DNA of 64,000 bases, taken from the NCBI RefSeq assembly GCF_003018235.1, contig NZ_CP027437.1; one strand, 5' to 3'. Below the pieces are notes generated by a model, which was given only the letters and a program-made list of their open reading frames with translations, was not told the DNA's origin and searched no databases. How positions within the stretch are numbered: the first letter of the stretch is position 1; every line of letters begins with the position of its first letter. This document shows positions 22,853 to 40,321 of this stretch, piece after piece. The position numbers were made by a program, and so were the translations under genes. Source of the DNA: Escherichia coli. GTDB taxonomy: Bacteria > Pseudomonadota > Gammaproteobacteria > Enterobacterales > Enterobacteriaceae.

Positions 22853-22874
22853 AGTGTTGCCTTTTTGTTATCAA

Positions 22875-22903
22875 TAAAAAAGGCCCCCCGATTTGGGAGG
22901 CCT
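22875..22903 (-). terminator. pheA attenuator terminator
   Basis: On the minus strand AGGCCTCCCAAATCGGGGGGCCT hairpin followed by TTTTTT, between the pheL stop and pheA start. Confidence 0.6.
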
Positions 22904-22950
22904 TATTGTTCGTCTTCGCATTCTGTTTCACACGACGAAACGCCTCCCAT

Positions 22951-22998
22951 TCAGGGGAAGGTAAAAAAGAATGCGAAGAAAAACGGTGTGTGTTTCAT
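22951..22998 (-). CDS. pheL: pheA leader peptide
   Basis: Encodes MKHTPFFFAFFFTFP* (Phe-rich 15-aa leader). Confidence 0.9.
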   Translation of the reverse strand: MKHTPFFFAFFFTFP

Positions 22999-23163
22999 GT
23001 TTGTTTCCTTAAGTGACTTCAGTACAGTACCCGTACTGTTTTCACGCTGTCAACAAAAAACGCGCCCGAAGGTGCTTTAATGAGGAGTGCCGCTTCTTTA
23101 TGTCTGTGAATTATCAACAACTTACGGGGAAACATAACCGCAAGAAGCGACAAGAAATTACAA

Positions 23164-24168
23164 CTATATGGACAGATTATGGACGCTTTCAGCCAGTGGA
23201 TTAAAGCTTATAGCATCCTGTAAAAAATCCGGTGCAAAATGCGCATATGTCATTGTTTGCTGGATAGTTGAATGTCCAAGAATCCGTTGAAGTGTTACTA
23301 TATTTCCTCCATTCATCATAAAGTGTGTTGCAAACGTATGCCGCATAACATGAGTTGCCTGTCCTTTGGGCAGATCTGGTTTTACTTCCTTTAGTGCTCG
23401 TCGAAAGTTTGTGTAATTAACATTAAACAATGCACCAGATTGTTTTATCTTGATGAGCTTTATAACTTCTTCGGATATAGGTATGGCGCGGGGTTTATTG
23501 GTTTTTGTCTGATTAAACATAACTCTGTTTCCCACAATATTTTCTCCCCGTAGTTTTGTTGCCTCTCCCCACCTTGCTCCTGTCGAAAGACACAGAATCG
23601 CTATTCGTTTGTTATCTCCAGTAAGATGATTGAGCAAGCGATCAATCTCTTCGTTTGATAAAAACGACATATCTGATGGTACAATCCTCAACTTCCTCAG
23701 ACCATGTAGCGGATTTGCATGGTGGAATTCTTCAGCATTAATCAGCACTGAAAACATGGCTGAAAGTACGCAGAGATCCCTGTTTACCGTGTTGGGTGTC
23801 AGTCCTGCACTGAGTTTGTTTGCACGATAACTCAGAAGGAACTTTCTGGTTACACCGTTGGCTCTGGGATCTCCCATTTCTCTGATCACTTTATTCAGCC
23901 TTTGCAGGTATGTCTCACCATAAGGCTGATTTTGCCCGTCGAGCATCCACCACATTTCGGCAAGTTCGGAAAGATGGCGTTTGTCTGCGGGTTTTTCCAG
24001 CCATGGTTTGTTATGCATGTTCTGAAGAACATATTTTTCATAATCCTGCGCTTTCGACTTCAGGGTGAAAATTTTTCGAATCCGCTTCCCTTCCGCACCC
24101 TGAGGTCTGACATCAACCTGATAACGTCCGTCTTTGAGCTGCTTAATCGACATGATTAGCACCTCCAA
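23164..24168 (-). CDS. int: Tyrosine-recombinase integrase, P2-family-like
   Basis: C-terminal catalytic region ...ATHVMRHTFATHFMMNGGNIVTLQRILGHSTIQQTMTYAHFAP...; ILCLSTGARWGEA and TKTNKPR motifs as I recall in P2 Int; true start may be the Met at 24153. Confidence 0.9.
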   Translation of the reverse strand: MEVLIMSIKQLKDGRYQVDVRPQGAEGKRIRKIFTLKSKAQDYEKYVLQNMHNKPWLEKPADKRHLSELAEMWWMLDGQNQPYGETYLQRLNKVIREMGDPRANGVTRKFLLSYRANKLSAGLTPNTVNRDLCVLSAMFSVLINAEEFHHANPLHGLRKLRIVPSDMSFLSNEEIDRLLNHLTGDNKRIAILCLSTGARWGEATKLRGENIVGNRVMFNQTKTNKPRAIPISEEVIKLIKIKQSGALFNVNYTNFRRALKEVKPDLPKGQATHVMRHTFATHFMMNGGNIVTLQRILGHSTIQQTMTYAHFAPDFLQDAISFNPLAESVHNLSI

Positions 24169-24243: not shown

Positions 24244-24567
24244 TTATTGGTGTGATTTTGAGTTTGTTGTAGTTGAATCCTGAGCGGCCTCCGATTCTCC
24301 AGAGCCATCAAGAGAGAGAGCCGGGGCGATCTGCCCGGCCTGAGGGAAGGTTTTGCCGTGCAGGAGCCACATTGTGTATTTTTCGAACAGTGAGCACTGT
24401 AATACACGGAGGGCGATATCTGCCCGGGCAGGTTGATGTCCTGTTTCATAACTCTTAACAGAACCAAGAGCTATACCTGTTATCTCGCTAAACTTTTGCT
24501 GGGTTATTTTTTCAGCACGTCTGATCGCTCGTAGTTTTTGAGCAAAATCCATTGACAAGGTATTCAT
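24244..24567 (-). CDS. Immunity repressor, P2 C-like (HTH)
   Basis: HTH FSEITGIALGSVKSYETG; C-terminal KYTMWLLHGK..GQIAPAL resembles P2 C (KYTLWFMTN..GQIAPAL) from memory; same strand as int. Confidence 0.7.
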   Translation of the reverse strand: MNTLSMDFAQKLRAIRRAEKITQQKFSEITGIALGSVKSYETGHQPARADIALRVLQCSLFEKYTMWLLHGKTFPQAGQIAPALSLDGSGESEAAQDSTTTNSKSHQ

Positions 24568-24668
24568 ATAACGACTATCCTTCTTTTGGTTGTTGATTAA
24601 CGACGTTTGCAATAGCTGACTATAGTCGACAGTAGCCAGCAAACGCACCAACGATGGAGGATAACAAA
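24568..24668. promoter_or_regulatory. Divergent promoter/operator region between repressor and cox-like gene
   Basis: 100-bp intergenic region with perfect palindrome GACTATAGTC (24618-24627) and a GACTAT half-site at 24573-24578. Confidence 0.4.
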
Positions 24669-25127
24669 ATGCAGGAAACTATTGCAGAGGGGGGGATATT
24701 CAACGCTGGTGGGGATGACACGCAGTTACAGGAAAAGGAAGTCAGAAATAAATTATCACTGAGACTTGATGGACCTGTAGCGGATTTAGTTTTTCTGGAT
24801 AAAGGAGCAGCATACGTTGGGCTGACCAGGAAAGCGCTTGCAACAGCTTTACGTAGAGGCGAAATGCCTGGACATAAGAAAAGAAAAAATCCTGAAGATG
24901 AAACATCGCGTGGAGTGTGGATTTTTAACGTCAAGGCATGGAATGAACTTGCTGATATTTTGCCTGAAATTGAGCCACCAGAATGGCATCACTGGAAAGA
25001 TTACTGGTTATACAACCGAAACACTCGGAAATTTCAAAAGATTGATAAACAAGATTGTACACAGATTAATGGTAAACGTGTTTACAGGCCGCGTCAGAGC
25101 AGACTGGAAAAAGCACGTCAGTCATGA
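24669..25127 (+). CDS. Hypothetical DNA-binding protein in cox/apl position (possible excisionase or lytic-switch regulator)
   Basis: GGAGG SD 9 nt upstream; segment LVFLDKGAAYVGLTRKALATALRRGEMP resembles excisionase/AlpA-type HTH; divergent from repressor. Confidence 0.35.
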   Translation: MQETIAEGGIFNAGGDDTQLQEKEVRNKLSLRLDGPVADLVFLDKGAAYVGLTRKALATALRRGEMPGHKKRKNPEDETSRGVWIFNVKAWNELADILPEIEPPEWHHWKDYWLYNRNTRKFQKIDKQDCTQINGKRVYRPRQSRLEKARQS

Positions 25128-25299
25128 AACGGTATTTATTAGTAAGCAACAAGAAAGTGAATTAAACTCATCGGCAATAACTCGTTATTAAATTGTCATA
25201 CTGTCTGAAACTATTTCCTTCTATTACTGATGTGTGAGGCACGGAAAGGGAATTCCGTTTTTTTAGTGGTGCGATGAGAAAATAACAGAGGTGTCAGAA

Positions 25300-25485
25300 A
25301 TGGAAAAAGAAAAACTGAGACATTTTCGTAAAGAATTAAAAGCTTCTCAGCGTGTAATGACTTTGGCTATTAAGCGATTAGAGGAAGGACGTTATAAGTC
25401 TGCAGTGGAACTCATGCGTGCAGAAGCAGCGGATATATTTAAACTGGCAGATGAATTAAGTGATGTAACAGAACAACAATCCTGA
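25300..25485 (+). CDS. Hypothetical small protein (61 aa)
   Basis: ATG with AGAGGTG SD; helical MEKEKLRHFRKELKASQRVMTLAIKRLEEG... Confidence 0.3.
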   Translation: MEKEKLRHFRKELKASQRVMTLAIKRLEEGRYKSAVELMRAEAADIFKLADELSDVTEQQS

Positions 25486-26281
25486 ACACAGGAAAGTTAT
25501 GGGCTTGTGTGATTCAGAAAGTGTGAGGTTACGTGCAAAATGGCCAGACATGTAAAAAAGAACTTGAATGCAGTGTCGGCATGGTGGTATTTTTCATCTG
25601 CTGCCACAGTGCTGGCAGTCGGGAATACCACCCCGTATGTGTCAACGGCGACATCAGACGCCGCAAGCGTCTTTTTTGTTGTCGTAACCTTATACGCCAT
25701 GAAGCTCCATTTTATGGTGCGGTGTTATCCATTAAGAGCCGTTGCAAGCGCCTCTACCGGAAGGGGCTGGATAACATCCACCACCATGTCAATGGTAGCT
25801 CAGGCGGGGCCGACTTCGGTCGGGCCGGTTTCCGTTGGCACCGGTAGTGGTATCCCCGTCTGGGCTATCGCCAGTGAGCATACCACCTCCTGCGATAGCA
25901 GTATGTTATGTCAACGGAGGCTGCCTGAATGGCTACAATCCCAACCCAAAAGCGCCCAAAATCCGCGCTCCCCCAGCTCAGCAGTGACTGTCGTCGCCGG
26001 ATACACCGTGTGCAGATGGTTACGCTCCATTATTACATTCAGTGTCTCGCTGATAATCCGTGTTCAGTTGATTTTTGTTTTCCGTACTTATTGTCTTACA
26101 TCCACGATGATATTAAGGCTATAGATAATGAGTTAATTTCTCTTGGCCTGTTTGAACAGGCGATGGGAAAGAAAAAACGACGATAGTTTTCATCGTTATT
26201 AATTAACGTTGTCAGGAAGTATTAAACACACCGCTCACGCGGCGGGAATCTTACATCTTAAATATCTGACGAGGTGGAAAC

Positions 26282-26437
26282 ATGAAGCTGTTTTCATTAC
26301 GTAAAAATAAAAAAACGGAAAAAAAGAAACGCACTTATCCGGCAAATAATAACGTCCGTCTGTTACGTTATTACCAGAAATTACAGGAATTAAGTTGTGA
26401 ACCGGATAAAAAGTTCAGCCTGGATGTGTGGATGTAA
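26282..26437 (+). CDS. Hypothetical small basic protein (51 aa)
   Basis: Strong SD GAGGTGG 6 nt upstream; immediately precedes the exonuclease gene; preceded by the conserved 19-nt motif at 26228-26246. Confidence 0.3.
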   Translation: MKLFSLRKNKKTEKKKRTYPANNNVRLLRYYQKLQELSCEPDKKFSLDVWM

Positions 26438-26448
26438 TGGGGGAATAA

Positions 26449-27024
26449 ATGAACGATCTGATGATTGATACTGAAACAACAGGAACATCCCATCATTCAG
26501 GGATTATTTCCTTTGCCGCAGCATTTTTTAATCCAGATACCGGAGATAAAGGTGACCACATTTATCTTCGCCTGGACTGGGTGAGTGCGACACGTAATGG
26601 CGCAGTGATTGATCCGGAGACATTCTGTTTCTGGTTAGAGCAATCGACAGAAGTAAGAATGGAAGCCGTCAGGAAAGACGAAAGTATTTCTGAACGTGAC
26701 GCCACATATGCGCTGATTAATTTTATTGAGCAGCGTGCTGATATCAGACGGGTGCGTGTCTGGGCGAAGTCACCCACGTTTGACTGCTCACTTCTTCGTG
26801 ACATGTGTGATCGGAGTATTGGGTCAAATACCAGCGTAGAAATGTTGTGGCCGTTCTGGAATGAGAGAGATGTCAGGACTGTTGAAGGGCTTGCCGCGCA
26901 TCTTGGCATTCCGTTGCCTTACTCCAGAAAGGAAGTCACTCATCATGCTCTTAATGACGTTATGGGGCAGATAAAAAATGTGGCTACCGTATTTGCAGCA
27001 CTGCGTGGCGTGATGGAGGTGTGA
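26449..27024 (+). CDS. DEDDh-type 3'-5' exonuclease (DnaQ-like)
   Basis: Exo I motif MIDTETTGT at N-terminus; later acidic/His residues (HHALNDV) consistent with Exo III. Confidence 0.65.
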   Translation: MNDLMIDTETTGTSHHSGIISFAAAFFNPDTGDKGDHIYLRLDWVSATRNGAVIDPETFCFWLEQSTEVRMEAVRKDESISERDATYALINFIEQRADIRRVRVWAKSPTFDCSLLRDMCDRSIGSNTSVEMLWPFWNERDVRTVEGLAAHLGIPLPYSRKEVTHHALNDVMGQIKNVATVFAALRGVMEV

Positions 27025-27025
27025 T

Positions 27026-27244
27026 GTGAATAAAGCACAACGTAATGCTGCAGCGGCAGCGAATCGTCACAGGGTCTCGCCGGAACAGGTGCTCATCTGG
27101 TGTGAGCAACTGAAACGCATTGTGGACACAGCAAACCAGAATACGCGGCACAACGAAAAGAGCAGGGCGCTTGAGCCGATTATTGCGTGGATTGAGCAGC
27201 AGAAGAAACAGGCAATGGAAGAAATCAGAAAACGGGGTGAATGA
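27026..27244 (+). CDS. Hypothetical protein (72 aa)
   Basis: GTG start with GGAGGTG SD overlapping exonuclease stop; translationally coupled to the next gene (ATGA overlap). Confidence 0.4.
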   Translation: MNKAQRNAAAAANRHRVSPEQVLIWCEQLKRIVDTANQNTRHNEKSRALEPIIAWIEQQKKQAMEEIRKRGE

Positions 27245-29283
27245 AAATGGCAGAAGAAAAGAATCAGGAATATGCATATGTATTTCCGGTAAAAAACGAA
27301 GCCGCCAGAAAACGCCTGGGTTTTGCGCATGGCTTTTACTGGAAGAGTGATTGCTCACAGGCGAGAGTGTTGCTTCGGGCGAATGTTGCCATGCTGGATG
27401 CGGGTTTTGAACCGGAGGATTTCAAAAAGCCTGTACGTGTTAATTTCCCGGTGGTGAACGAACTCCCAGCGGAAGGTGTTTTTGATACGGAATTTTGCCA
27501 CCTGTATGTACCGGGCGGTGAAGACGGCAAGACGATGGTGTATATCGACGCTGTAAAACAGGAGGCAGACAAGGAAAAAAACAACGTAGCCAGTAACACC
27601 AACGTCAACGGCGAAGATATGACTGAGATTGAGGAGAGCATGCTTCTGCCGATTTCCGCTCAGGAGTTGCCAGTTCGCTGGCTGGCGCAACACGGGAAGG
27701 AGAACCCCGTTACTCACGTTTCCAGAGACGAACTTCAGGCTTTACATGTTGCACGGGCGGAAGAATTACCGGCAGTTACTGCACTGGCGGTTTCCCACAA
27801 AACAGGCCTGCTCGACCCGCTGGAGATCCGCGACCTTCACAAACTGGTGCGTGATACTGACAAAGTTTTCCCTCATCCTGGCAATTCAGACCTGGGGCTC
27901 TTGACTGCTTTTTTTGAAGCATACCTGAATGCTGACTACACCGATCGCGGTCTGCTGACAAAAGAATGGTGCAAAGGAAATCACATATCCCGCCTGGAAC
28001 GTAAAAAAATACAACCAGAGAGCGCAGAACCGCTACGTGCAACCAGGGAAAGACCGCGGCGTAGTGAAAAACCAACCTTCAGAACGATTAATTATGAAAT
28101 CGCCTGTGCTTTATGCCCGGGTGCGGACTGTCATGATTTACGTCCGGTGGTGAATTCAGCGAAGAAACTGATGGCTGACGGGGATGAAAGATGGCGGGCA
28201 TGGTCGACATCTCTTGGCATTACTGAAGGGATTAAAAACTGGGACAGAAAAACGATTTTTGACATGGTCAGTCAGGCTCCGTCACATGTCACAACGGGGT
28301 CAGCAGAGGCGCGCAGGGAGTGGATTGAAAACTTTCTGATTGCACGTGGTGTGCGTGATCCGGAGTGGGCTGAGCCGCTTGTATGCGTTTCCGTACCGGA
28401 ACATGAAGATAATCTGGAAAGAGTTCGCGGTGCAGGAAAACGTCTGCGGAAGCTTGAGAATAGTGATTGCACATTTCAGGCAGACAACGGTTCTGGGGAG
28501 GCTGAGGTGGTTGAAGCGGACGAAAGCAAAGCAACGTCATCTGCTGAAATTCAGGATGCCGATAAATTACTGGCCGCTTACCGTGGTGAATATGTTGAAG
28601 GGATTAGCGACCCGAATGATCCGAAGTGGGTGAAGGGGATCCAGAGACGCGATGATGAGGACCAGGATCAGGCTGAAGCGGAACAAGACGACCAACACGT
28701 GGAACGGAACAGCCCAGATGCGAGACAAAACGAGCCTGATACGGAACAGAATGAGCAAGGAGCACTGCAGGGACCGGAAAAAGTCTGCGACACCTGCGGA
28801 CAGGACGGAGGTGGAAAATGTCCGGATTGCGGTTCTGTCATGGGGGATAGCACATACAGTGCCGTTTATGGCGGGGATCGAGAGGAGTCAGCGTATGTGG
28901 CAGAGCATGGTGCTTTGAATAATCAGAGCAAAGTTACAGTTGGCGAGGTCATGGAGATCATGAAAGCGGTTAAGCCAGCCGTTCATGTTGATGCTGAAGG
29001 GGAAACGGAAGAGATAAACGGTGATCAACTATCACTGCAGACTGAAAATAAGGATGACCGGTCATCACGGAAAGCGTCAGAAGATGTGCCCATGTTTATC
29101 AGTGAGACCGTTCTCCATAAGGAGGATGGTGAGGCAAATATGAATATCTGTGAGTTGGTGAACATGTTGCATCAGCAACAGGAAATGCTGAAAGAAATCC
29201 GCTCAACTCAGGCCCGCTTTATGGGCGCGATTGTAGCCATGCTTTCGGTTATTTCAGGGGGAGAGCAGGTAGGACATGAGTAA
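27241..29283 (+). CDS. Hypothetical 680-aa protein with acidic tract and CxxC-x9-CxxC zinc ribbon
   Basis: Long ORF with balanced composition; CDTCGQDGGGKCPDCGS motif; D/E/Q-rich segment; no NTPase motif seen. Confidence 0.6.
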   Translation: MKMAEEKNQEYAYVFPVKNEAARKRLGFAHGFYWKSDCSQARVLLRANVAMLDAGFEPEDFKKPVRVNFPVVNELPAEGVFDTEFCHLYVPGGEDGKTMVYIDAVKQEADKEKNNVASNTNVNGEDMTEIEESMLLPISAQELPVRWLAQHGKENPVTHVSRDELQALHVARAEELPAVTALAVSHKTGLLDPLEIRDLHKLVRDTDKVFPHPGNSDLGLLTAFFEAYLNADYTDRGLLTKEWCKGNHISRLERKKIQPESAEPLRATRERPRRSEKPTFRTINYEIACALCPGADCHDLRPVVNSAKKLMADGDERWRAWSTSLGITEGIKNWDRKTIFDMVSQAPSHVTTGSAEARREWIENFLIARGVRDPEWAEPLVCVSVPEHEDNLERVRGAGKRLRKLENSDCTFQADNGSGEAEVVEADESKATSSAEIQDADKLLAAYRGEYVEGISDPNDPKWVKGIQRRDDEDQDQAEAEQDDQHVERNSPDARQNEPDTEQNEQGALQGPEKVCDTCGQDGGGKCPDCGSVMGDSTYSAVYGGDREESAYVAEHGALNNQSKVTVGEVMEIMKAVKPAVHVDAEGETEEINGDQLSLQTENKDDRSSRKASEDVPMFISETVLHKEDGEANMNICELVNMLHQQQEMLKEIRSTQARFMGAIVAMLSVISGGEQVGHE

Positions 29284-29497
29284 GTTAAGTGATGAAGCGT
29301 GTGATGTTTTTGAATGTCTGCTGGCATCAGAACGGAATACAGCACGGGGTGTGGCAAAAGAGTTACAGATATCTCCGGCAACTGCGGTTGAAATACTGAA
29401 ACGGCTGGAGGAAGAAGGGCTGGTAACACAACTGAATGGCTTCTGGTCTGTGCAGGAAAAGAAAAGCAACGGGAGTAAAAATGGAAAACATAGTTGA
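29276..29497 (+). CDS. Small winged-helix-like protein (paralog 1)
   Basis: TARGVAKELQISPATAVEILKRLEEEGLV pattern shared with 29481, 30300 and 37514 ORFs. Confidence 0.5.
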   Translation: MSKLSDEACDVFECLLASERNTARGVAKELQISPATAVEILKRLEEEGLVTQLNGFWSVQEKKSNGSKNGKHS

Positions 29498-30284
29498 TGC
29501 CCTGAAAGCGATGGGTAAAGCCACGTCAGTGGAACTGGCTGCGCGTCTCCAGATCAGCCGTGAGGAAGTACTGAATGAACTCTGGGAATTGCGGCGCAGT
29601 GGTGTTGTGGATCAAAACTTACAGGTCTGGACACTGGCCAGCGATGGTGCGCAACGGGAACAAAAAACGCCTGCTGCGGTGTATCAGCGTGATAACAAGG
29701 AGGAGCGTAAATTACGTGAGGTCGTCAGTCGCCAGGAGCGAGCGCCACTGAATCGCAGTGATATTCTGTCCGCGTTTGCTCATTGTGAGGAAATGACCAC
29801 CGCGGAGATAGCAACAGCAGTGGGGCGCGCTGATAGTGTCAGGTCGTTGGTTTCCGCAATGGAAAAACTTTGTCGTACTGGTCTGGTAATCAAAATGGGG
29901 CAGGGTAAGGGGTGTAAGTGGAAACTGGTAAAAAAATCCGGTGAAAATTTACCAACAGTGCCAGAAACAGAGCCGGTAGCGCTGTCCGGTGGTAAATCTG
30001 AGTCTGCCGCTGTGGTGGTCGATTTGCCACAGCAGAAAACGCAGACCAAAACCAAACAAGAGACTGTGACGGACATTGTGCAGTCGCTGCCATCGTTTAC
30101 CGCAACGCGGTATGATGACCTGATTTTACCATCGCTGCATATGGCAAACCGCGAACTGCGTCGGGCGAAAAGTCATGTCCAGAAGTGGGAGCGAGTCTGC
30201 GCCGCGCTGCGGGAGCTGAACAAGCACCGGGATATTGTTCGACAGATTACTGATTCTTCCCGCCGGGTTGCATCGGAAAAGTGA
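29481..30284 (+). CDS. Tandem winged-helix-like protein (paralogs 2a/2b)
   Basis: Two internal copies of the same ~50-aa pattern (ATSVELAARLQISREEVLNELWELRRSGVV and MTTAEIATAVGRADSVRSLVSAMEKLCRTGLV); GGGAG SD. Confidence 0.5.
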   Translation: MENIVDALKAMGKATSVELAARLQISREEVLNELWELRRSGVVDQNLQVWTLASDGAQREQKTPAAVYQRDNKEERKLREVVSRQERAPLNRSDILSAFAHCEEMTTAEIATAVGRADSVRSLVSAMEKLCRTGLVIKMGQGKGCKWKLVKKSGENLPTVPETEPVALSGGKSESAAVVVDLPQQKTQTKTKQETVTDIVQSLPSFTATRYDDLILPSLHMANRELRRAKSHVQKWERVCAALRELNKHRDIVRQITDSSRRVASEK

Positions 30285-30299
30285 TTGCCGGAGGCGCTT

Positions 30300-30722
30300 A
30301 TGGCAAAAGTATTTACACAAGAAGAGCGGGAAAAAATTAAAGGGCAGGTTGTTGAGCTAGTACGCCGGAGTGGGCGCGAGACGTTACGGCAACTGGAAGC
30401 CAAGACAGGTGTGACAAGATATCTGATGAGCGTTCTCGCCAGAGAGCTGGTTGCCAGTGGCGATGTATACAACTCTGGTTACGGGTTATTCCCCTCTGAA
30501 CAGGCTCGTAAGGACTGGCAAAACGCCCGTAAAAAACTATCTAGGGCAAAGGTAAAAAAAACGGTTGTGGTTGATCCTGACCTTATCTGGTCATTACCTG
30601 ATGGAGAAATACGCCGCTACGACAGGAGCCTGAATATAATCTGTCGCGAGTGCCGGAAGAGCGAAGCTATGCAGCGTGTACCGGCTTTCTATCAGGGCAA
30701 TTTTCAGGAGGCGGTACTGTGA
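30300..30722 (+). CDS. Winged-helix-like protein (paralog 3)
   Basis: VVELVRRSGRETLRQLEAKTGVTRYLMSVLARELVASGDV; GGAGG SD. Confidence 0.5.
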   Translation: MAKVFTQEEREKIKGQVVELVRRSGRETLRQLEAKTGVTRYLMSVLARELVASGDVYNSGYGLFPSEQARKDWQNARKKLSRAKVKKTVVVDPDLIWSLPDGEIRRYDRSLNIICRECRKSEAMQRVPAFYQGNFQEAVL

Positions 30723-30779
30723 GTGAAATTAGCTATCAGGCTTCAATTACCGCTGGCATTCGCATCAAAGGAGAGGAGC

Positions 30780-31136
30780 ATGGAAATAAAACCAGAAGAT
30801 GAGTTAAGCAATATCGTTTTATTCCCGGTAAAAGAGGATGACCCTCGTAATCGGGTTAATTTTCTTTATGAGCCATCGGAAAGACCATATTGCCATCACG
30901 CTTCTGTCCGGGTTGACGAAAAAGAGCGTCAGGTCCGCTGTAAAATCTGCGGCGCAGTTGTGGAGCCATTTGACTGGATGCTCTCTGTGGCGAAAAGAGA
31001 AACCAGACTGGCAGATGATGTAAGGCTCTTGCGCCAGGAGGAACGGGAAAGGCGAAAAAATATAGAAAAGCTAATTCAGATTGAGCGTAACGCGAAAGCG
31101 CGGATACGCAGGGTGACAAAATACAGAACTGAATAA
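30780..31136 (+). CDS. Hypothetical protein with Cys/His cluster
   Basis: AGGAGAGGAG SD; YCHHASVRVDEKERQVRCKICG; basic C-terminus. Confidence 0.45.
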   Translation: MEIKPEDELSNIVLFPVKEDDPRNRVNFLYEPSERPYCHHASVRVDEKERQVRCKICGAVVEPFDWMLSVAKRETRLADDVRLLRQEERERRKNIEKLIQIERNAKARIRRVTKYRTE

Positions 31137-31187
31137 TTAAATTCAGCACTGCAAATAAAAATTAAATCCTTAACTTGAGGTATATCT

Positions 31188-31400
31188 ATGTTAAATACAC
31201 AGAAAACAATTAACGCGGAAAAATATAACGAGTGGGTGAGAAAATTCTCTGAGCAGATTTTTAAAATTACTGGCGACGAGAATGTGGCAAAAAATGAATT
31301 AGAGCCGTGGACACCTGAAGGAACCGACCCAAATTATTGTTGGTGGGAGGTTGATCCGGTTGATGCTGCAAATGAAGCCATGAGTTACTACAACGATTAA
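31188..31400 (+). CDS. Hypothetical protein (70 aa)
   Basis: ORF with upstream GAGG; no recognisable motif. Confidence 0.35.
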   Translation: MLNTQKTINAEKYNEWVRKFSEQIFKITGDENVAKNELEPWTPEGTDPNYCWWEVDPVDAANEAMSYYND

Positions 31401-31435
31401 TGCCGGAAGACTACCCGAAAGAGAGGTAATGAAAA

Positions 31436-32065
31436 ATGGCTGAATTAACCAAAGAATGGCTAAAAAACATGATTACCGGAATTGAGTCGGTAATAGACGA
31501 TAAATCGTTTGTATGTGATGAAATAGTATTCAAAATAGGTGAGGTTAAAAACATACTTACCGCATTTAAAGTCGCGCTGGCATCGCTGGAAGCAGAGCCG
31601 GTGGCTGAGATTAGAGCGCACTACCCATTAGGGATTAACGGCGGTAAACAAAAGTTCGTCCAGGCCATTGGAGATCTTCCTGACTTTGGCGGACATCTGT
31701 ACGCCGCTCCGCCAGCGCCTGTAGTGCCGGATGAGGGGCGCGACAAGTTTGAAGCAATTATCAGGTTTCATGTCGGTGATGAAAACCATGAAACATTATT
31801 GCTGCGGGCCAACGAAGGGATGAATTACCGGGACCCAAATGTTGATTTTGCATGGATATTCTGGAAGTCCAGTCGTGAGCATCTGCTTCGGAATAATGAC
31901 GGCAGTCTGCCAGAATCGGGTCATCAGGTACGCGGATTAACACTGCTGGTTAAGCGACTGGCCAGTTCATTAAAAAGCGTCAATAAATCCAGCAAGCTGC
32001 CTGATAAGGCGCTGGAGTATCTGAAGCAGAACGGACTGATAAGCGTGGAGGATATTTTACGATGA
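31436..32065 (+). CDS. Hypothetical protein (209 aa)
   Basis: ORF with SD AGAGAGG; no recognisable motif. Confidence 0.45.
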   Translation: MAELTKEWLKNMITGIESVIDDKSFVCDEIVFKIGEVKNILTAFKVALASLEAEPVAEIRAHYPLGINGGKQKFVQAIGDLPDFGGHLYAAPPAPVVPDEGRDKFEAIIRFHVGDENHETLLLRANEGMNYRDPNVDFAWIFWKSSREHLLRNNDGSLPESGHQVRGLTLLVKRLASSLKSVNKSSKLPDKALEYLKQNGLISVEDILR

Positions 32066-32149
32066 CCTGGCCTGAAGCATTCACCACGGCAGGAATTGCG
32101 ATGGCGGTGGCACTGGTTGTGTATTCTATTTGTCGTTGGGGGTAAACAC

Positions 32150-32401
32150 ATGTTCTCTCTGATTCAGCGTGGTCAGCGGTATGTTGATGCAGCTGGTTAT
32201 CCTGTGGAGATTTGTTTTTGTTCTGCTGAGAAAGTGGTGTATCGCCGCCAGGACAATCAGACCCGTTCTGCAAGTATTGTTGACTTTAATCAGAATTTTG
32301 AACGTCTGGATTATCACGAATATATACGGATTAAATCAGATATGGAGCAGACAGAACATCTGCGGAAATTAAGACGATTACACAAAAGAGGTGGGGAATA
32401 A
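32150..32401 (+). CDS. Hypothetical protein (83 aa)
   Basis: Internal ATG with GGGGG SD; MFSLIQRGQRYVDAAGYPVEICF... Confidence 0.35.
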   Translation: MFSLIQRGQRYVDAAGYPVEICFCSAEKVVYRRQDNQTRSASIVDFNQNFERLDYHEYIRIKSDMEQTEHLRKLRRLHKRGGE

Positions 32402-32894
32402 CCACGGATAAAGAGAACTAAATTTCGTCAGAATTAACAGGAAATAACTGGAACGAAAAATACACCGCTTACGCGGCGGGGTTTCTGCAACCTTAAAACA
32501 GGGTAAGAGAAATGGCAGAGATGATGAACAATAAACTCTTCATAACCAGTCTCTTTAAGTTGACTGGCCGGGAGTAACGACCAGTGGCAATACAAAAAAA
32601 CCGCTTGCCAGCGTTTGTCTGGTCGGGTTACATTTCCCGTGCACCTCATAAAACGGGTGCCGGGATTCTCAACCCGCAGAAGAACAGAGCGCATAACCGC
32701 GCCAGCGGTTTTTTTATGCGTGCCGTATCGTCACACCTTTTTCGCACACGAATTATGGCGGGGCGTACGGGGCCGACTTCGGTCGGGCCGGATCCTCTGT
32801 TCTCCGGTGTTGAGAACCCCGTACGTCTCGCCACCCCGAGATTCTCAACTCTGGATGGTGAGTTATGTCTATCACTGAACAGAGGTTACCCCTT

Positions 32895-33125
32895 ATGGCA
32901 AACCGTAAACAACAGCGCGCCCGCACTGAGCGTCGTCACATCCAGACCGAAATCAACCGCAGACTGTACCGGGCTATCACTGTCGCCAGAGTCATGTACT
33001 TCAATATGCTGTGTGATCAGGGATGCCAGATTGCACCTGATTACATTGCCTCCACGTTCAGTTACCTGGCAGACGATCTGCGGGATATGCAACGCCTGGT
33101 TAACGATCAGGCGCATAACCTGTAA
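32895..33125 (+). CDS. Hypothetical small basic protein immediately upstream of repA
   Basis: MANRKQQRARTERRHIQTEINRRLY...; alternative start at 32865. Confidence 0.35.
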   Translation: MANRKQQRARTERRHIQTEINRRLYRAITVARVMYFNMLCDQGCQIAPDYIASTFSYLADDLRDMQRLVNDQAHNL

Positions 33126-33203
33126 CGCACTTTTTCCTGAAATCATGAAACGGCACTCCGCTATCTGGCGGGGTGTCTGGCTGCCCGTTATCCGGGAGGA
33201 CAT

Positions 33204-35126
33204 ATGACCGTGTATTCAGCGGGAGGTCCGCGCATGCCTGAGCCGGAAGAAGAACAGGCATTCACTGAAGAGGTGAACAGCGCCTTTTCCGGGCTGCCTC
33301 GTTTTGTGTCTGTAAAGCTGGGGCGCAGGATCAGCAGCGCATGGCAGACAAAGGGTTTTGCCGGTGCACGGGAAAAATTTGCGCTGATGGTTCAGAAGGA
33401 TTTGCCGTTCATTACCGGGGTGAATAAACGTTATGCCATTAATCCGGATGAATTACCGGGGTGGCTGTTTGGTGGGCTGGCATCTGATCAGGCATACGGT
33501 GCGGTTCATTCCATGACCTGGCGATTTAATGCCATGGTGGATGGTGACGACGGGGATGCGCATTTACTGGCTCAGGATCTGTCCGTGTTTCTTATTGCTG
33601 AAATGCAGCACCTGAGTGTTCTTCTTGCGGATGAAGATGCGGATGCGGCGGCAGATGCCATTTATGCCATGGTTGCCGGGCTTGTTGAGCATTTCCGGAT
33701 GGAGCCACCGGACTGGAAGCGTTTTATTGGCAGAAAGCTGACACTGGAGCAACTGACTGTTGCCATCAGCCGGATGCTGAGTGTTCGCTGGTGGCAGGGA
33801 AAACTCAGGGCATTCTCCCGTCGCTGGCGTGAACATCTGCTTATAGCTATGGGTGTCGTTCGTCGGCAGTCTTCACCGCACTGCAGTTATGAATGGGTGC
33901 AGAGGTGGCTGGCGGGGCGTAAGCACGGTCGAAGGCTGATGGCGGAAACGGACGTTGAGGATGAAGAAACAGGAGAAAGATTTTCACTTCTCGATTTGGT
34001 TGACAGCAGCATTTCAGATGCGGAGAAACGCCGCGCAGAGCTGATGACCAGGGTTAAGGGGCTGGAAGATTTAGCCCGTTTTGAAGGTGTGGCGCAGGAG
34101 CAGGGGTATATCGGGCTTTTTTTCACGATGACCGCGCCATCAAAATATCATGCCTGGCTGGAGACAGGATATCGCAATCGTCGTTATAACGGCGCAAGCC
34201 CGAAAGACACACAAAATTATTTCTCCGGACTCTGGCGTCAGATCAGTGCAACGCTGAGGCGCAGGGGGATCGGGATTTTTGGATTAAGAAGTGCCGAACC
34301 GCATCATGACGGAACGCCGCACTGGCATGGTGTTCTCTATGTGCATCAGGAGCATGCTGCCGCCTTACAGGACATTCTTGAGTATTACGCCAACCGCGAT
34401 GATGACGCGGGAAAAACGCCCATCCGCAAAGCAGGAAGAAAATCCCACCTGGAAATAAAACCGGTTCTTGATGATCTGGGGAGTGCCTCTGCCTATATCG
34501 CCAAGCATATTGGAATGAATCTTGACGGTTGTGCGCCAGGCGGAATGAATCATGAAACGGGCCATACACTGGTGGTCACTGCCCGCCACGCCTCGGCGTG
34601 GGCGTCATTATGGGGGATCAAGCAGTTTCAGTTTATAGGCAGCACACCGGTAAGTGTATGGCGTGAGCTGCGTCGCTTTAACAATCAGGCTCATGCTGAC
34701 CGGATAAGCCCGGCGCTGGGTGAGTTACACCGTGCAGCCAGTGAGGGTGACTGGAAAACCTATACCAGGCTGCAGGGTGGACCGTTTGTGGCACGAAGAG
34801 ATCTGGTCCTTCGCACATGGTATCAGCGTTCGGAGGAGCCGGATGAGTGTGGGCTACACACCAGTGCGATCAAAGGTGTTTATATGCCGGGGCGTGATAC
34901 GCCACCGGTAGTGACGCGTTCACGTAACTGGAGGATCACCCGGAACGTTACAACAGGCGCTCTCAATGTTAACCGGGGGTCTGCTTTAACGCCCTGGACT
35001 TGTGTCAATAACTGCATTTCGGGCAGAAAACGACCAGATGGTCATCCTCCGGATCCAGGTATAAGGATCCCTGTTCAACTGGAACTGAACTTCGGGGAAG
35101 AGAATAAAGGGAAAAGTGAGCAGTAA
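33204..35126 (+). CDS. Rolling-circle replication initiation endonuclease (HUH family; P2 gpA-like)
   Basis: GGGAGGA SD; HUH-type motif GTPHWHGVLYV; 640 aa in the position of gene A relative to int-C-cox. Confidence 0.75.
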   Translation: MTVYSAGGPRMPEPEEEQAFTEEVNSAFSGLPRFVSVKLGRRISSAWQTKGFAGAREKFALMVQKDLPFITGVNKRYAINPDELPGWLFGGLASDQAYGAVHSMTWRFNAMVDGDDGDAHLLAQDLSVFLIAEMQHLSVLLADEDADAAADAIYAMVAGLVEHFRMEPPDWKRFIGRKLTLEQLTVAISRMLSVRWWQGKLRAFSRRWREHLLIAMGVVRRQSSPHCSYEWVQRWLAGRKHGRRLMAETDVEDEETGERFSLLDLVDSSISDAEKRRAELMTRVKGLEDLARFEGVAQEQGYIGLFFTMTAPSKYHAWLETGYRNRRYNGASPKDTQNYFSGLWRQISATLRRRGIGIFGLRSAEPHHDGTPHWHGVLYVHQEHAAALQDILEYYANRDDDAGKTPIRKAGRKSHLEIKPVLDDLGSASAYIAKHIGMNLDGCAPGGMNHETGHTLVVTARHASAWASLWGIKQFQFIGSTPVSVWRELRRFNNQAHADRISPALGELHRAASEGDWKTYTRLQGGPFVARRDLVLRTWYQRSEEPDECGLHTSAIKGVYMPGRDTPPVVTRSRNWRITRNVTTGALNVNRGSALTPWTCVNNCISGRKRPDGHPPDPGIRIPVQLELNFGEENKGKSEQ

Positions 35127-35533: not shown

Positions 35534-36613
35534 ATGCAGGCGATCCTGACGGTATTCCCGCAGCGTAATGCCGGGATAACACTGATGAAAACAGGTAATC
35601 TGACAGCGCGGTTCAGGGACGGGCAGAGAATAATGATAAGGGATGTTCCGTCTGTGATGGCTGGGATGCCATCAGGAGAAATTCCGTCATCAGGACAGAG
35701 GCTGGCGGAAGAGGAAGGACTGACGGCTTTCTTTGCTGACGGAAGGGTAATAAAGCGTGCTGGTGGCAGTGATGCCATGGCGCGTTGGGTGAGCAGGATT
35801 GCAGGCTGCCAGTGTGAGAATGGTGATCACGTGGAGAACATGACAACAGCGCGGACAATGCAGGGAGAGGCGCTTCGGTTATGCCATGCCTGTGATAATC
35901 ATCATTATATGAAAGGATATCGGGCGCTGGCAGATGTGGCAGCCAGAAATCGTGCAGAATGGCTGATGGATTATATCAGGATGAGTCTGGGGCTGGGGGA
36001 AGATCATCAGGTGACCATTCCTGAGTTGTTTTGCTGGGCAGTGCTGAATGATGTGGCAGATGCTGTTCCGGTTATGATCGTAAGGCGTATCAGACAATTG
36101 CCGGAAGAGGAAAAGCTGAGCGGCACGATGAAAGAAGCAGATATTAATCCCTGGCAGACATCAGCAGGCACAGTGGTGAAGAAACTGGCAGATAATGCGA
36201 AGAGCGTTAATGTGTGCAATGTGCGGGTCAGACATGCAGTACGCCAGGAAGAACACAAAGAAATGGAAAAACCGGTGCTGAAACTTGTTGCAGACAGTGA
36301 TCCGGCTGCGGGCTATATGAGGAAGCCCAGAATGCAGCGGCTGTCTCTGCCGGGTTATACCTCGTGGGTGAAGCGTCAGCGATGCTGTGGATGCGGGAAA
36401 CCTGCAGATGATCCGCATCACATCACCGGGCACGGTTTTGGTGGTGCAGGGATAAAAGCCAGTGATTTGTTTGTGATCCCGCTGTGTCGGCAATGTCATC
36501 AGGAATTACACAATGACAGCAAGGCATGGGAGGAGAAAAACGGCAGTCAGTTGCTGTGGGTGATAAGGACGCTGGACAGGGCAGCGGGCATTGGCGCTTT
36601 AGTTGGGGGGTAA
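35534..36613 (+). CDS. Hypothetical protein with C-terminal HNH-like Cys/His nuclease motif
   Basis: CCGCGKPADDPHHITGHGFGGAGIKASDLFVIPLCRQCHQELHND; translationally coupled to upstream gene. Confidence 0.55.
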   Translation: MQAILTVFPQRNAGITLMKTGNLTARFRDGQRIMIRDVPSVMAGMPSGEIPSSGQRLAEEEGLTAFFADGRVIKRAGGSDAMARWVSRIAGCQCENGDHVENMTTARTMQGEALRLCHACDNHHYMKGYRALADVAARNRAEWLMDYIRMSLGLGEDHQVTIPELFCWAVLNDVADAVPVMIVRRIRQLPEEEKLSGTMKEADINPWQTSAGTVVKKLADNAKSVNVCNVRVRHAVRQEEHKEMEKPVLKLVADSDPAAGYMRKPRMQRLSLPGYTSWVKRQRCCGCGKPADDPHHITGHGFGGAGIKASDLFVIPLCRQCHQELHNDSKAWEEKNGSQLLWVIRTLDRAAGIGALVGG

Positions 36614-36614
36614 C

Positions 36615-37319
36615 ATGACACCGCAACAGATGGTATGGGCGAGAGAGCAGGTTATTTTTGCACTGAATCCACCGGATAAACGTCAGAAGGGGCAACTGGA
36701 GGCATTTGGTGATTTTGCCAGGTCAGACACCAGGCGTTACGGGAGGCAGAGAAACAGGACACTGAACATTGATGGCCGGTGGTATTGTCAGGATGGTGAT
36801 CCGGTACATGCTGCGGCAACAGCCTGTTATGCAATACAACCGGATATGATCACCAGGGAAGCGTTCAGAACGGCACAACTGAGGAGGAGGATTTATTGTC
36901 TGGAGGATTATCATCGGGCCTGGGTGTTATTCAGTTACAGCTTGCAGAAAAAACGAATACACCATCTTCTGGTCAGTGAGTACATCTGGATGAGGATGTT
37001 CGAGCGGTTGCAGGGGAAACGGGTTACGGACAGGATGACAGGAAATCTGATTGAAATAGCGAGGATGGCTGCATGGAATGCTGCAGTGACAGCCGGTGGG
37101 ATTGTTGCAGGTAAGGTTCTGATTGCTCCTTCATGTGCGGCGCAGATTGCAGGTGTAAAACCAAACACATGGAGTCAGCATTACAAGGCTCACTGGTGTT
37201 TTATGCATGAAGTATGCGATGAACTGGATCATGAGGCGCTGGTGACCATTACAGGAATAAAAAATCACCAAAAAAACGGCGAAAAATATAAATTTGCTAA
37301 AGTGAATATTTTAAGGTAG
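36615..37319 (+). CDS. Hypothetical protein (234 aa); a late-gene antiterminator role is possible by position only
   Basis: Last long ORF before a terminator and the late region; no motif recognised with confidence. Confidence 0.4.
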   Translation: MTPQQMVWAREQVIFALNPPDKRQKGQLEAFGDFARSDTRRYGRQRNRTLNIDGRWYCQDGDPVHAAATACYAIQPDMITREAFRTAQLRRRIYCLEDYHRAWVLFSYSLQKKRIHHLLVSEYIWMRMFERLQGKRVTDRMTGNLIEIARMAAWNAAVTAGGIVAGKVLIAPSCAAQIAGVKPNTWSQHYKAHWCFMHEVCDELDHEALVTITGIKNHQKNGEKYKFAKVNILR

Positions 37320-39457: not shown

Positions 39458-39534
39458 GCGCCGTTAGCTCAGCTGGACAGAGCAATTGCCTTCTAAGCAA
39501 TCGGTCACTGGTTCGAATCCAGTATGGCGCACCA
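39458..39534 (+). tRNA. tRNA-Arg (anticodon UCU)
   Basis: Manual cloverleaf: acceptor GCGCCGT/ATGGCGC, D-arm GCTC..GAGC, anticodon loop CTTCTAA, T-arm ACTGG-TTCGAAT-CCAGT, CCA end. Confidence 0.85.
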
Positions 39535-39535
39535 T

Positions 39536-39610
39536 GCGGTCATCGTATAATGGCTATTACCTCGGCCTTCCAGGCTGATGATGCGGGTTCGATTCCAGCT
39601 GGCCGCTCCA
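39536..39610 (+). tRNA. tRNA-Gly (anticodon UCC)
   Basis: Manual cloverleaf: acceptor GCGGTCA/TGGCCGC, anticodon loop CTTCCAG, T-loop TTCGATT, CCA end; close to glyT tRNA as I recall it. Confidence 0.8.
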
Positions 39611-39630
39611 TAGAGGATTATGGGGACTGT

Positions 39631-39768
39631 ATGTTGAGTATTTTTCTGCGTTACCTTTCATCGGTAAAAATAAACACACAACAACTATTTATGCTGGCAT
39701 TAGCAATGATAGTTATTGGTTTTCTCGGAACTTGTTTATTTATTTACTATATTTTTGTCGATAATTAA
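39631..39768 (+). CDS. Hypothetical small hydrophobic peptide (45 aa) in moron position
   Basis: MLSIFLRYLSSVKINTQQLFMLALAMIVIGFLGTCLFIYYIFVDN; weak SD; lies between tRNAs and the esterase gene. Confidence 0.25.
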   Translation: MLSIFLRYLSSVKINTQQLFMLALAMIVIGFLGTCLFIYYIFVDN

Positions 39769-40321
39769 TATTTTTAGTATTTAGCCAGAGTGGCCCAAAC
39801 AGAAAATAAAGTTACTGTGAAACAGGGGGGCCTAATAAAAATAATCACCACTAAATTCGGGGCTTTAAAAATGCTAAGAACATCACATTTCATTATGCCG
39901 GGTACTGGAGAATAACATGATGTTTTGTTAAAAATGATTTTGCATGGTGAATCCCCCTGTGCGGCGGGGCATAATGACAGATGTTTGGTTGCGTATTGTA
40001 TAGGCAAGTTGCGGATTCTGTCTGGTCATTGCAGAATTCACCGGGAGGCACCCGGCACCATGCAGATAATTGTTTTGTGGATGATAATACCAGCCCCTCT
40101 CCGGAGGGGCTTTCTTATGGGCGAAAAAAAGCCCGGGGAGCCGGGCAATAGCATGAGATATACGTTTTTATAGACGTACAGATTTTAATCAGAATTTATG
40201 GGGCTGCGCAACTGCGTGGCCTTTTTTGTTTTGTGGGCTAAGGTTTTCCCCTTTGATTCGCCATGTGGCTGAACCTGTAGCCCGCCACTGTTCAGACGCA
40301 ATCCCGGCAAGGGGAGGAATA

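Follow-up and report, generated by a model that had tools for sequence, protein, structure and literature searches.

Two predicted IsrK-C4-epsilon RNA locks and a split exonuclease set in the cox-to-gpA block of a rare hybrid Escherichia coli prophage

The DNA considered here is a window of 64,000 nucleotides (nt) of the Escherichia coli chromosome (contig NZ_CP027437.1, assembly GCF_003018235.1), in which a prophage carries an unusually long block, 25130-33203, between the genes for its Cox-family protein and its P2 gpA-type replication endonuclease. From the end of cox at 25127 to the start of gpA at 33204 the gap is 8.08 kb, compared with 1.75 kb in P2 and 3.95 kb in P88, and it holds 14 open reading frames (ORFs), all on the plus strand. 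An earlier reading made from the letters alone (hereafter the sequence-only reading) had rightly picked out this length and had proposed the block, as cargo bracketed by two pairs of repeats, as the best candidate in the window for an uncharacterized accessory system. Our results favor a different interpretation, to which we assign a probability of about 0.8, namely that the block is the early (lytic) operon of a rare prophage lineage, with two RNA locks (IsrK-C4-epsilon modules), a conserved gene set, and a swap region, and is not cargo. The conserved gene set comprises orf51, the gene for a DexA-like exonuclease, orf72, and the genes for a RecE N-terminal-domain protein (RecE-N), a small winged-helix protein, and a DUF1627 protein, while the swap region is ~1.8 kb of small genes exchanged with lambdoid prophages. 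Coordinates are collected in Table 1.

Predicted RNA locks at the two ends of the block

The first repeat noticed in the sequence-only reading, a 24-nt hairpin (CGGGGCCGACTTCGGTCGGGCCGG), does occur in exactly two copies (25805-25828 and 32768-32791; none expected from 100 shuffles) and, judged from covariance-model matches, forms the conserved stem-loop I in each of two C4 antisense RNAs. At the curated gathering scores of the Rfam models (45 bits for C4, RF01695; 50 bits for isrK, RF01394), both C4 RNAs are recovered over model positions 1-87 of 87, and IsrK RNA 2 exceeds the score for its family and ends in an intrinsic terminator. At the DNA level, the region of C4 RNA 1 is 76.5% identical to the cI/seqC region of P4, and that of C4 RNA 2 shares 80.8% identity with its counterpart in phage P88. 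A promoter-like site precedes each isrK gene: that of lock 1 ends 6 nt 5' of isrK-1 and has both hexamers invariant in four relatives, and both hexamers of lock 2 are invariant across the window, the relatives L001 and L088, and P88. Among the functions that had been considered for the block (defense, anti-defense, or regulation), the regulatory option was the right one for the flanking repeats.

Pairing between the C4 RNAs and their leaders was searched explicitly with loop and single-strand elements; folding of full-length duplexes of C4 and leader was uninformative, as it unfolds both RNAs, and cognate pairs nonetheless came out ahead. In C4 RNA 2, element a' (GUUGAGAA), located in the 3' single strand, has a perfect 8-nt complement (TTCTCAAC) at 32666 (a1) and 32842 (a2), and element b' (CCUCUGUUC, also given as AUCCUCUGUUCU for the loop of hairpin 2) has perfect complements at 32681 (b1, AGAACAGAG) and 32877 (b2, GAACAGAGG, 9 nt). 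Lock 1 has the same four-site arrangement with different sequences, and in both locks the complements to the exposed C4 elements are perfect over 7-10 nt at all four sites. In total, 25 C4 modules were located in the window, four E. coli relatives, five relatives from IMG/VR, P88, and P4, which served as the positive control, and 20 of these could be parsed for a' and b'. The parsed modules hold 19 a'/b' combinations (11 a' and 16 b'), each module has its matching a1, b1, a2, and b2, and covariation with the RNA extends to all four of these sites. Cognate pairs score 16-18, compared with a mean of 10.7 for non-cognate pairs, and C4 RNAs sharing one genome score 9-12.5 against each other's leaders; these scores show the two locks of the phage to be orthogonal in their predicted pairing. 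In each of 22 modules, b2 coincides with the Shine-Dalgarno sequence, and 7-10 nt separate its end from an ATG (8 nt for eps1 and 9 nt for eps2 in the window); according to phmmer this ATG opens an ORF of the epsilon family in all but one of the 22, the exception being the ORF after P4 seqC.

The two epsilon ('derepression') ORFs of the block are only 25% identical to each other. The first, eps1, is conserved in nine relatives at 59-96%; its homolog in L005 is a RefSeq 'derepression protein', and it is left unannotated in the closest RefSeq relatives. The second, eps2, is 58% identical to the 'derepression protein' of P88 and bears the same RefSeq name in L001 and L002, and phmmer ties it both to eps1-type proteins and to the P88 protein. 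In P4 (L004, 3241-3450), the ATG after seqC and b2 opens a 65-amino-acid ORF whose start, MATTLTPSHPE, resembles eps1-type starts. The annotated P4 epsilon begins 200 nt further on, its match to eps1 is confined to the C-terminal third of that protein, and it may thus have arisen by rearrangement of an eps1-type gene.

Protein annotations overlap the isrK and C4 RNA genes in several genomes (window 25540-26124, L002 6796-7155, L005 4520-4768, and L003 5033-5221), under labels that include 'transcriptional repressor' (PHROG 6928), 'ash family protein' and 'Icd-like protein' (RefSeq), and a P88 hypothetical protein. These look like ORF calls on conserved RNA genes, and the corresponding RefSeq and PHROG labels can be flagged as apparent annotation errors. 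The 'cI' of P4 was historically likewise called as an ORF on an RNA gene.

Lock specificity differs even between near-identical relatives. When the window (32660-32850) is compared with the 99%-identical L001 (13946-14136), lock 2 differs almost solely at the a1, a', and a2 patches, with an a specificity of ACUGCGAA in L001 versus GUUGAGAA in the window, and gene conversion from another module likely lies behind this switch. Three C4 genes are present in L002, L006, and L089, where an isrK-C4(-eps) unit has been duplicated in tandem, and the Rfam family for the element carrying a1 and b1 also matches in these three relatives. The arrangement varies: in L002 (6655-7101) and L006 (4549-4995), the eps1 start is truncated and followed by an inserted 356-nt unit of new specificity, and L089 (8872-9638) holds two complete C4-eps2 units in tandem.

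The second repeat, a 19-nt motif (ACACCGCTNACGCGGCGGG), is likewise present in exactly two copies, with none expected by chance. An exact-pattern scan of IMG/VR recovered it from at least 80 prophage stretches (L008-L087), in nearly all of which it sits in the same context, consisting of a stop-rich TTAATTAA, a spacer of ~20 nt, the motif, ATTCGTACAnCCTGAAT, and a ribosome site with ATG, and the genes downstream vary from stretch to stretch. On this comparative evidence the motif, which no Rfam family covers, is a widespread oriented intergenic hairpin of enterobacterial prophage early operons, and its candidacy as a cassette end was rejected because so many unrelated prophage stretches carry it in the same intergenic context. 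After copy 2, where other prophages have a full gene, lies a 21-codon ORF (MAEMMNNKLFITSLFKLTGRE, 32493-32558), probably a remnant left by recombination.

Given that both pairs of direct repeats are far above chance and that relatives with three C4 genes contain tandem IsrK-C4 duplications, the repeats might instead mark the ends of a cassette that was inserted or duplicated, or the scars of such an event, with the 8 kb acquired as a unit. We regard this as very improbable. The repeats do not bracket a cassette; they belong to two independent, complete modules, each with its own a'/b' specificity, targets, and divergent epsilon paralog. In addition, hairpin and 19-nt motif follow each other in opposite orders at the left and right ends, L005 and L006 have the block but lack the second copy of the motif, and relatives with gpA identities as low as 55% retain the two-lock layout. 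No recombinase or transposase was found in the block with PHROGs or NCBIfam, and none of nine relatives has an empty site.

Table 1. Positions and supporting matches of features in the prophage, in window coordinates
Feature	Position	Strand	Evidence and remarks
Tyrosine integrase	23164-24168	minus	
Helix-turn-helix repressor, P2 C homolog	24244-24651	minus	31% identical to P2 C, E 5e-23
Cox-family protein	24654-25127		Left anchor of block
Intrinsic-terminator-like hairpin and T7 run	25241-25258	+	Directly 3' of cox, before orf64; consensus scan
orf64, small conserved early ORF	25291-25485	+	78-98% in L001, L002, L005, L006; 44-47% in L090, L092
Lock 1 promoter-like site	25564-25593	+	-35 TTGAAT, 18-nt spacer, TGg-TATTTT; read from sequence
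IsrK/P4-seqA-like RNA 1	25600-25677	+	a1 25625-25631, b1 25640-25648, terminator 25656-25672 and U6
C4 antisense RNA 1	25788-25875	+	RF01695 74.2 bits; b' loop 25829-25840, a' 25846-25853
Lock 1 target sites	25880-25920	+	a2 25880-25886; b2 25909-25920 over GGAGG ribosome site
eps1, 85 amino acids, P4-epsilon family	25929-26186	+	Pfam PF25738 E 4.1e-8; BLASTP vs P4 epsilon E 6e-6
19-nt intergenic hairpin motif, copy 1	26228-26246	+	
orf51, small ORF	26282-26437	+	86-100% identical in close relatives
DexA-like DEDDh 3'-5' exonuclease, 191 amino acids	26449-27024	+	Pfam PF16473 E 1.3e-40; PDB 8KEL (exodeoxyribonuclease) E 9e-8
orf72, small conserved ORF between exonuclease and RecE-N	27026-27244	+	34-99% in all nine relatives
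RecE N-terminal-domain protein, 680 amino acids	27241-29283	+	Pfam PF06630 only, E 9e-35
Small winged-helix protein, 73 amino acids	29276-29497	+	PHROG 630 E 7e-8 and generic winged-helix matches
DUF1627-family protein, two winged-helix domains	29436-30284	+	PHROG 630 E 6e-88; RefSeq relatives named DUF1627
LygF/Ren-like protein (LygF145)	30285-30722	+	PHROG 142; variable sub-block
137-amino-acid zinc-ribbon ORF	30723-31136	+	PHROG 1621; PF08271 E 3e-4; variable sub-block
orf70	31188-31400	+	PHROG 4659; variable sub-block
orf209	31436-32065	+	PHROG 660/924; variable sub-block
DUF4222 protein	32096-32401	+	PHROG 285 E 7e-25; conserved in most relatives
19-nt intergenic hairpin motif, copy 2	32462-32480	+	Only in closest relatives L001, L002
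Lock 2 promoter-like site	32605-32634	+	TTGCCA, 18-nt spacer, TACATT; consensus scan
IsrK RNA 2	32641-32715	+	RF01394 65.4 bits; a1 32666-32673, b1 32681-32689, terminator 32695-32710 and U7
C4 antisense RNA 2	32751-32838	+	RF01695 77.0 bits; b' 32792-32803, a' 32809-32816
Lock 2 target sites	32842-32885	+	a2 32842-32849; b2 32877-32885 over AGAGG ribosome site
eps2, 76 amino acids, epsilon family	32895-33125	+	Pfam PF25738 E 7.8e-4 (marginal); PHROG 3688 E 9e-32
P2 gpA-type replication endonuclease	33204-35126	+	PHROG 91 E 2e-173; 31% identical to P2 A, E 6e-75

Lineage core, swap region, and the split exonuclease

Conservation was compared across the four E. coli relatives (L001, L002, L005, and L006), which were analyzed at the ORF level and sit at two different integration sites, and the five from IMG/VR (L088-L092), whose gpA identity falls to 55% (L089-L092). 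All nine contain, in order, (isrK)-C4-eps1; orf72 and RecE-N; (isrK)-C4-eps2; and gpA, orf93, DUF968, and Q, and in P88 the lock 2 arrangement immediately precedes gpA. Only in L092 was no match to the exonuclease obtained, all other relatives having kept it. In L005, L006, and L088, RecE-N remains intact over its full length, with 69% identity. For orf64 there is no match in L089 or L091; the small winged-helix ORF is found only in close relatives and L088, and beyond that same group DUF1627 has just a weak partial match in L091. Because both locks and the exonuclease set are still found where gpA identity has dropped to 55%, we consider them lineage core, and the conserved order in the relatives, together with lock 2 of P88, indicates that the block is mostly core with a 1.8-kb swap region. 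The variability between cox and gpA that would be expected of cargo is limited to that region (30285-32065), where LygF145, the zinc-ribbon ORF, orf70, and orf209 differ in presence even between relatives of 98-99% identity and where the DNA is 90-95% identical to lambdoid and Shiga toxin (Stx) phages; 25130-30284 and 32096-33203 are conserved.

Within the conserved part, the sequence-only reading had pointed to a stand-alone DEDDh exonuclease, which is indeed present, and to a 680-amino-acid 'zinc-ribbon/acidic' protein, which is acidic with a CxxC...CxxC pattern and whose identity is that of a RecE N-terminal-domain protein. These two 'unknown' genes are halves of a common prophage exonuclease, since both align to the fused protein P0042 (785 amino acids), the larger over residues 6-551 at 50% identity and the smaller over residues 605-778 at 34%. 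The 680-amino-acid protein also aligns with positions 5-551 of 883 in PHROG 607 and residues 4-422 of 877 in the NCBIfam exodeoxyribonuclease VIII model, where its score of 540 lies below the equivalog cut-off of 1269. It contains the PF06630 domain; the RecE C-terminal PD-(D/E)XK nuclease domain (PF12684, RecE residues 564-866) is absent from it according to Pfam, and it has no relative in the PDB even though the solved RecE nuclease domain is deposited there. Nor does any ORF in 25130-33203 match a RecT-type annealase family in PHROGs or NCBIfam. Proteins with PF06630 occur with PF12684 (890 amino acids, the canonical RecE), with PF16473 (785-818 amino acids, the fusion that is a very common E. 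coli prophage 'exonuclease'), or with PF06630 alone (677-704 amino acids), the last being the form in the lineage of this prophage. As judged from these alignments, the order exonuclease-orf72-RecE-N is a split, permuted version of the common fusion. No function is known for the N-terminal domain of RecE (PMC11611040).

For the ORFs, which had been described as unlike standard replication or recombination genes, clear homologs were found among the ordinary early genes that lambdoid and Rac-type prophages carry, the families represented being the RecE N-terminal domain, DexA-like exonuclease, DUF1627, LygF/Ren-like, PHROGs 1621, 4659, 660, and 285, and DUF4222. NCBIfam has no match for most of the ORFs, and PHROGs and NCBIfam together gave no informative family match for orf64 and none for orf51. 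A Cys/His-type protein had also been noted, and the block does contain a 137-amino-acid zinc-ribbon ORF. Three winged-helix ORFs had been taken for paralogs; all three are present (the small winged-helix protein, the DUF1627 protein, and LygF145), and their mutual similarity is weak (pairwise E values of ~0.005, with cross-matches to each other's PHROGs), which by sequence marks them as members of a common fold class and not as recent paralogs. Segments of the block have matches, at 85-95%, in 4360 of 5426 complete E. coli genomes as well as in many lambdoid and Stx phages. Since the ORFs have such ordinary homologs and about three-quarters of the block is core in the relatives, the idea of an uncharacterized cargo system is largely refuted.

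The part of this idea that deserves separate consideration is that the block, or some of it, is an uncharacterized anti-phage defense or anti-defense island carried as cargo, two of the options that the sequence-only reading had raised. The region 30285-32065 turns over among 98-99% identical relatives between conserved anchors, a pattern that formally marks a prophage diversity hotspot (PMC9122126), one of its ORFs belongs to PHROG 142, labelled 'Ren-like exclusion protein', and most ORFs of this sub-block have no known function. Even so, we find a defense island quite unlikely. A search of all block ORFs against PADLOC-DB 2.0 returned just generic DEDDh (E 4e-7) and winged-helix/Csa3-type domain matches and no system, three-quarters of the block is lineage core, and those genes that do vary are small lambdoid early genes of very common kinds. 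The defense hotspot described for P2-like prophages, a locus of high turnover adjoining cos, is located between the gpA and portal genes (PMC9122126, Rousset et al. 2022), whereas the block lies between cox and gpA, and gpA is here followed by orf93, DUF968, and Q.

A model for the locks and the prophage that carries them

By analogy with P1, P4, and Gifsy-1, the promoter of each lock would in the lysogen produce IsrK and then, by read-through and processing, C4. IsrK would display the decoy sites a1 and b1, and C4 would pair with a2 and b2 of its own leader and block epsilon translation, in the manner of P1 c4 and P4 CI. This pairing may also stop transcription downstream, affecting the exonuclease set and the accessory genes in the case of lock 1 and gpA, DUF968, and Q in the case of lock 2. 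Once a lock opens, epsilon would inactivate the C-type repressor, leading to lytic commitment, again as modeled on P1, P4, and Gifsy-1. P4 epsilon binds the P2 C repressor, and because of this the epsilon proteins encoded here can be presumed to act as anti-repressors of P2-C-type repressors. Since terminator-like hairpins lie at ~25241, 25656, and 32695, transcription from the early promoter is expected to meet at least three terminators before it reaches gpA.

It is also possible, though we would give it less than even odds, that the locks are mainly P4-type transcription terminators that gate the gene sets downstream instead of P1-type translational repressors, a difference that concerns mechanistic detail only. 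Under such a mode, lock 1 would gate the exonuclease set through DUF4222 and lock 2 would gate gpA, DUF968, and Q. The likeness of lock 1 to the P4 cI/seqC region fits this mode, as P4 CI RNA causes premature termination (PMC4825925), and so do the strong intrinsic terminators at the ends of both IsrK RNAs and the location of lock 2 directly upstream of the replication gene and Q. Against it stands the placement of b2 on the Shine-Dalgarno sequence in all 22 modules, which is the design of the P1 c4 translation block. The two modes are not mutually exclusive.

Several observations weigh against our overall interpretation of the block as an early operon governed by two RNA locks. IsrK RNA 1 scores 49.0 bits with RF01394, 1 below the gathering score (local E 3.6e-9), and the promoters and terminators of the locks are consensus matches only. 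For eps2, the Pfam match is marginal, and there is no direct BLAST similarity to P4 epsilon.

A broader proposal, which taken as a whole with all the parts that follow we consider unlikely, is that the two or three orthogonal IsrK/C4 locks act in series to gate a P2-type early operon at the RNA level. If this were true, lock 1 would control the split RecE-N/DexA set, gpA and the late activator Q would be under lock 2, and the epsilon paralogs would target different P2-C-type repressors, those of the phage itself and those of competing P2-like prophages. The phage would then derepress resident P2-like prophages as satellite P4 does its helper, the immunity/epsilon cassette of P4 would descend from such a module in complete phages, and the diversity of a' and b' (19 specificities in 20 modules) would reflect an arms race over immunity specificity.

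As for the prophage that carries the early operon, it adjoins pheA and its leader (Rfam Phe_leader 22874-22999; RefSeq relatives). Downstream (3') of gpA lie orf93, a DUF968/HNH gene, the Q antiterminator gene (36603-37319), tRNA genes, STnc100, and late genes, the last being 88% identical to those of Stx-type phages and extending to the end of the window. From these homologies, the prophage (window 23164-64000) is a hybrid in which P2-type int, C, cox, and gpA are joined to a lambdoid DUF968-Q-late-gene module; in such a hybrid, a P2-type rolling-circle replicon would have to supply lambda-type packaging. Its gpA is rare, being encoded by 6 of 5426 complete E. coli genomes, and none of the gpA proteins in phage records exceeds 37.5% identity to it. 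The published non-lambdoid 'Eru' types of Stx phages were considered as a match for this hybrid and rejected, as the Eru paper mentions neither Cox nor a replication endonuclease. Genes for tRNA-Arg(tct), tRNA-Gly(tcc), and the small RNA STnc100 (145.6 bits) lie downstream of Q at 39458-40122, with one to four copies of STnc100 among the relatives; the same position in Stx phages holds tRNAs and toxin genes. About 18 kb upstream of the prophage, on the minus strand (4756-5118), is the transfer-messenger RNA gene ssrA, a classic island integration site.

In our view the findings are of moderate interest, which lies in orthogonal C4-epsilon locks in a P2-type phage, their specificity switches, the split RecE-N/DexA exonuclease, and the rare hybrid that holds them. 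The probable removal of a false lead is useful in itself, as the block does not appear to be a hidden defense island and routine tools (Rfam, PHROGs, and Pfam) suffice to see this. The system offers a clean natural example of RNA-lock evolution, with several orthogonal C4-type locks per phage and compensatory changes at three or four sites separating near-identical relatives. If epsilon-family anti-repressors are under RNA control in P2-type phages, as proposed here, this would bear on how prophages with non-cleavable C repressors are induced.

Comparison with known systems

Every component of the block belongs to a known family. In relation to Rac RecE and to the 785-818-amino-acid fusion, the 680- and 191-amino-acid ORFs together cover the whole of P0042; the block differs from Rac RecE in having no PF12684 domain and no RecT partner among its family matches, and from the fusion in that the halves are separate genes, permuted, with orf72 in between. 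P88 (Xuanwuvirus, Peduoviridae) has the same general layout, with int, C, cox, accessory ORFs (winged-helix and Ea22-like genes among them), isrK, C4, a 'derepression protein' gene, and gpA, and it differs in having one lock, no RecE-N/exonuclease set, a 3.95-kb gap, P2-type late genes, and a gpA that is 30% identical to that of the prophage. A search of the literature on epsilon and C4 in P2-like phages and on P88 found nothing on such a module.

The isrK-orf45(STnc1160)-anrP locus of Gifsy-1 likewise has IsrK and a leaky terminator upstream of a processed RNA and an anti-repressor gene (PMC4825925). Its IsrK, which prophage induction requires, is a structural homolog of P4 SeqA, and the locus controls the anti-repressor AnrP and prophage induction; the published model, however, is that IsrK activates translation in trans via orf45 (PMC4825925). 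AnrP is not an epsilon-family protein, and antQ lies upstream of isrK in Gifsy-1, whereas Q is downstream here.

In the immI region of P1 and P7 the layout is a1 b1 - c4 RNA - a2 b2 - icd - ant, and in P4 it is seqA - CI - seqC. The locks described here share with immI the RNA family RF01695, the two-site antisense design, the upstream decoys, and the position of b2 over the ribosome-binding site. The diversification of specificity through changes in a' and b' also parallels the heteroimmunity of P1 and P7, which is established. The guarded gene here, by contrast, is of the epsilon type (75-89 amino acids) and not icd-ant, and no homolog of Icd or Ant was found; the RefSeq 'Icd-like' label in L005 sits on an ORF that overlaps the C4 gene.

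The closest parallel in order is P4, in which an IsrK/seqA-like RNA, the C4/CI RNA, the target sites, an epsilon-family gene, and a replication gene follow one another as they do here. The seqA and CI regions of P4 score for the same Rfam families (isrK 60.8 bits, C4 74.9 bits) and showed the same a1/b1/a2/b2 logic in the control analysis, and the likeness extends to the match between eps1 and P4 epsilon and to the identity between lock 1 and P4 cI given above. P4 is, however, a satellite, whereas the prophage is a complete phage that encodes a protein repressor of its own, of the P2 C type, and it has two locks (three in some relatives) of different specificities with two divergent epsilon paralogs. 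The replication gene is the alpha primase gene in P4 and a P2 gpA-type gene here, and the ORF directly after seqC in P4 is not the annotated epsilon. The modules described here also bear on the origin of the immunity/epsilon cassette of P4.

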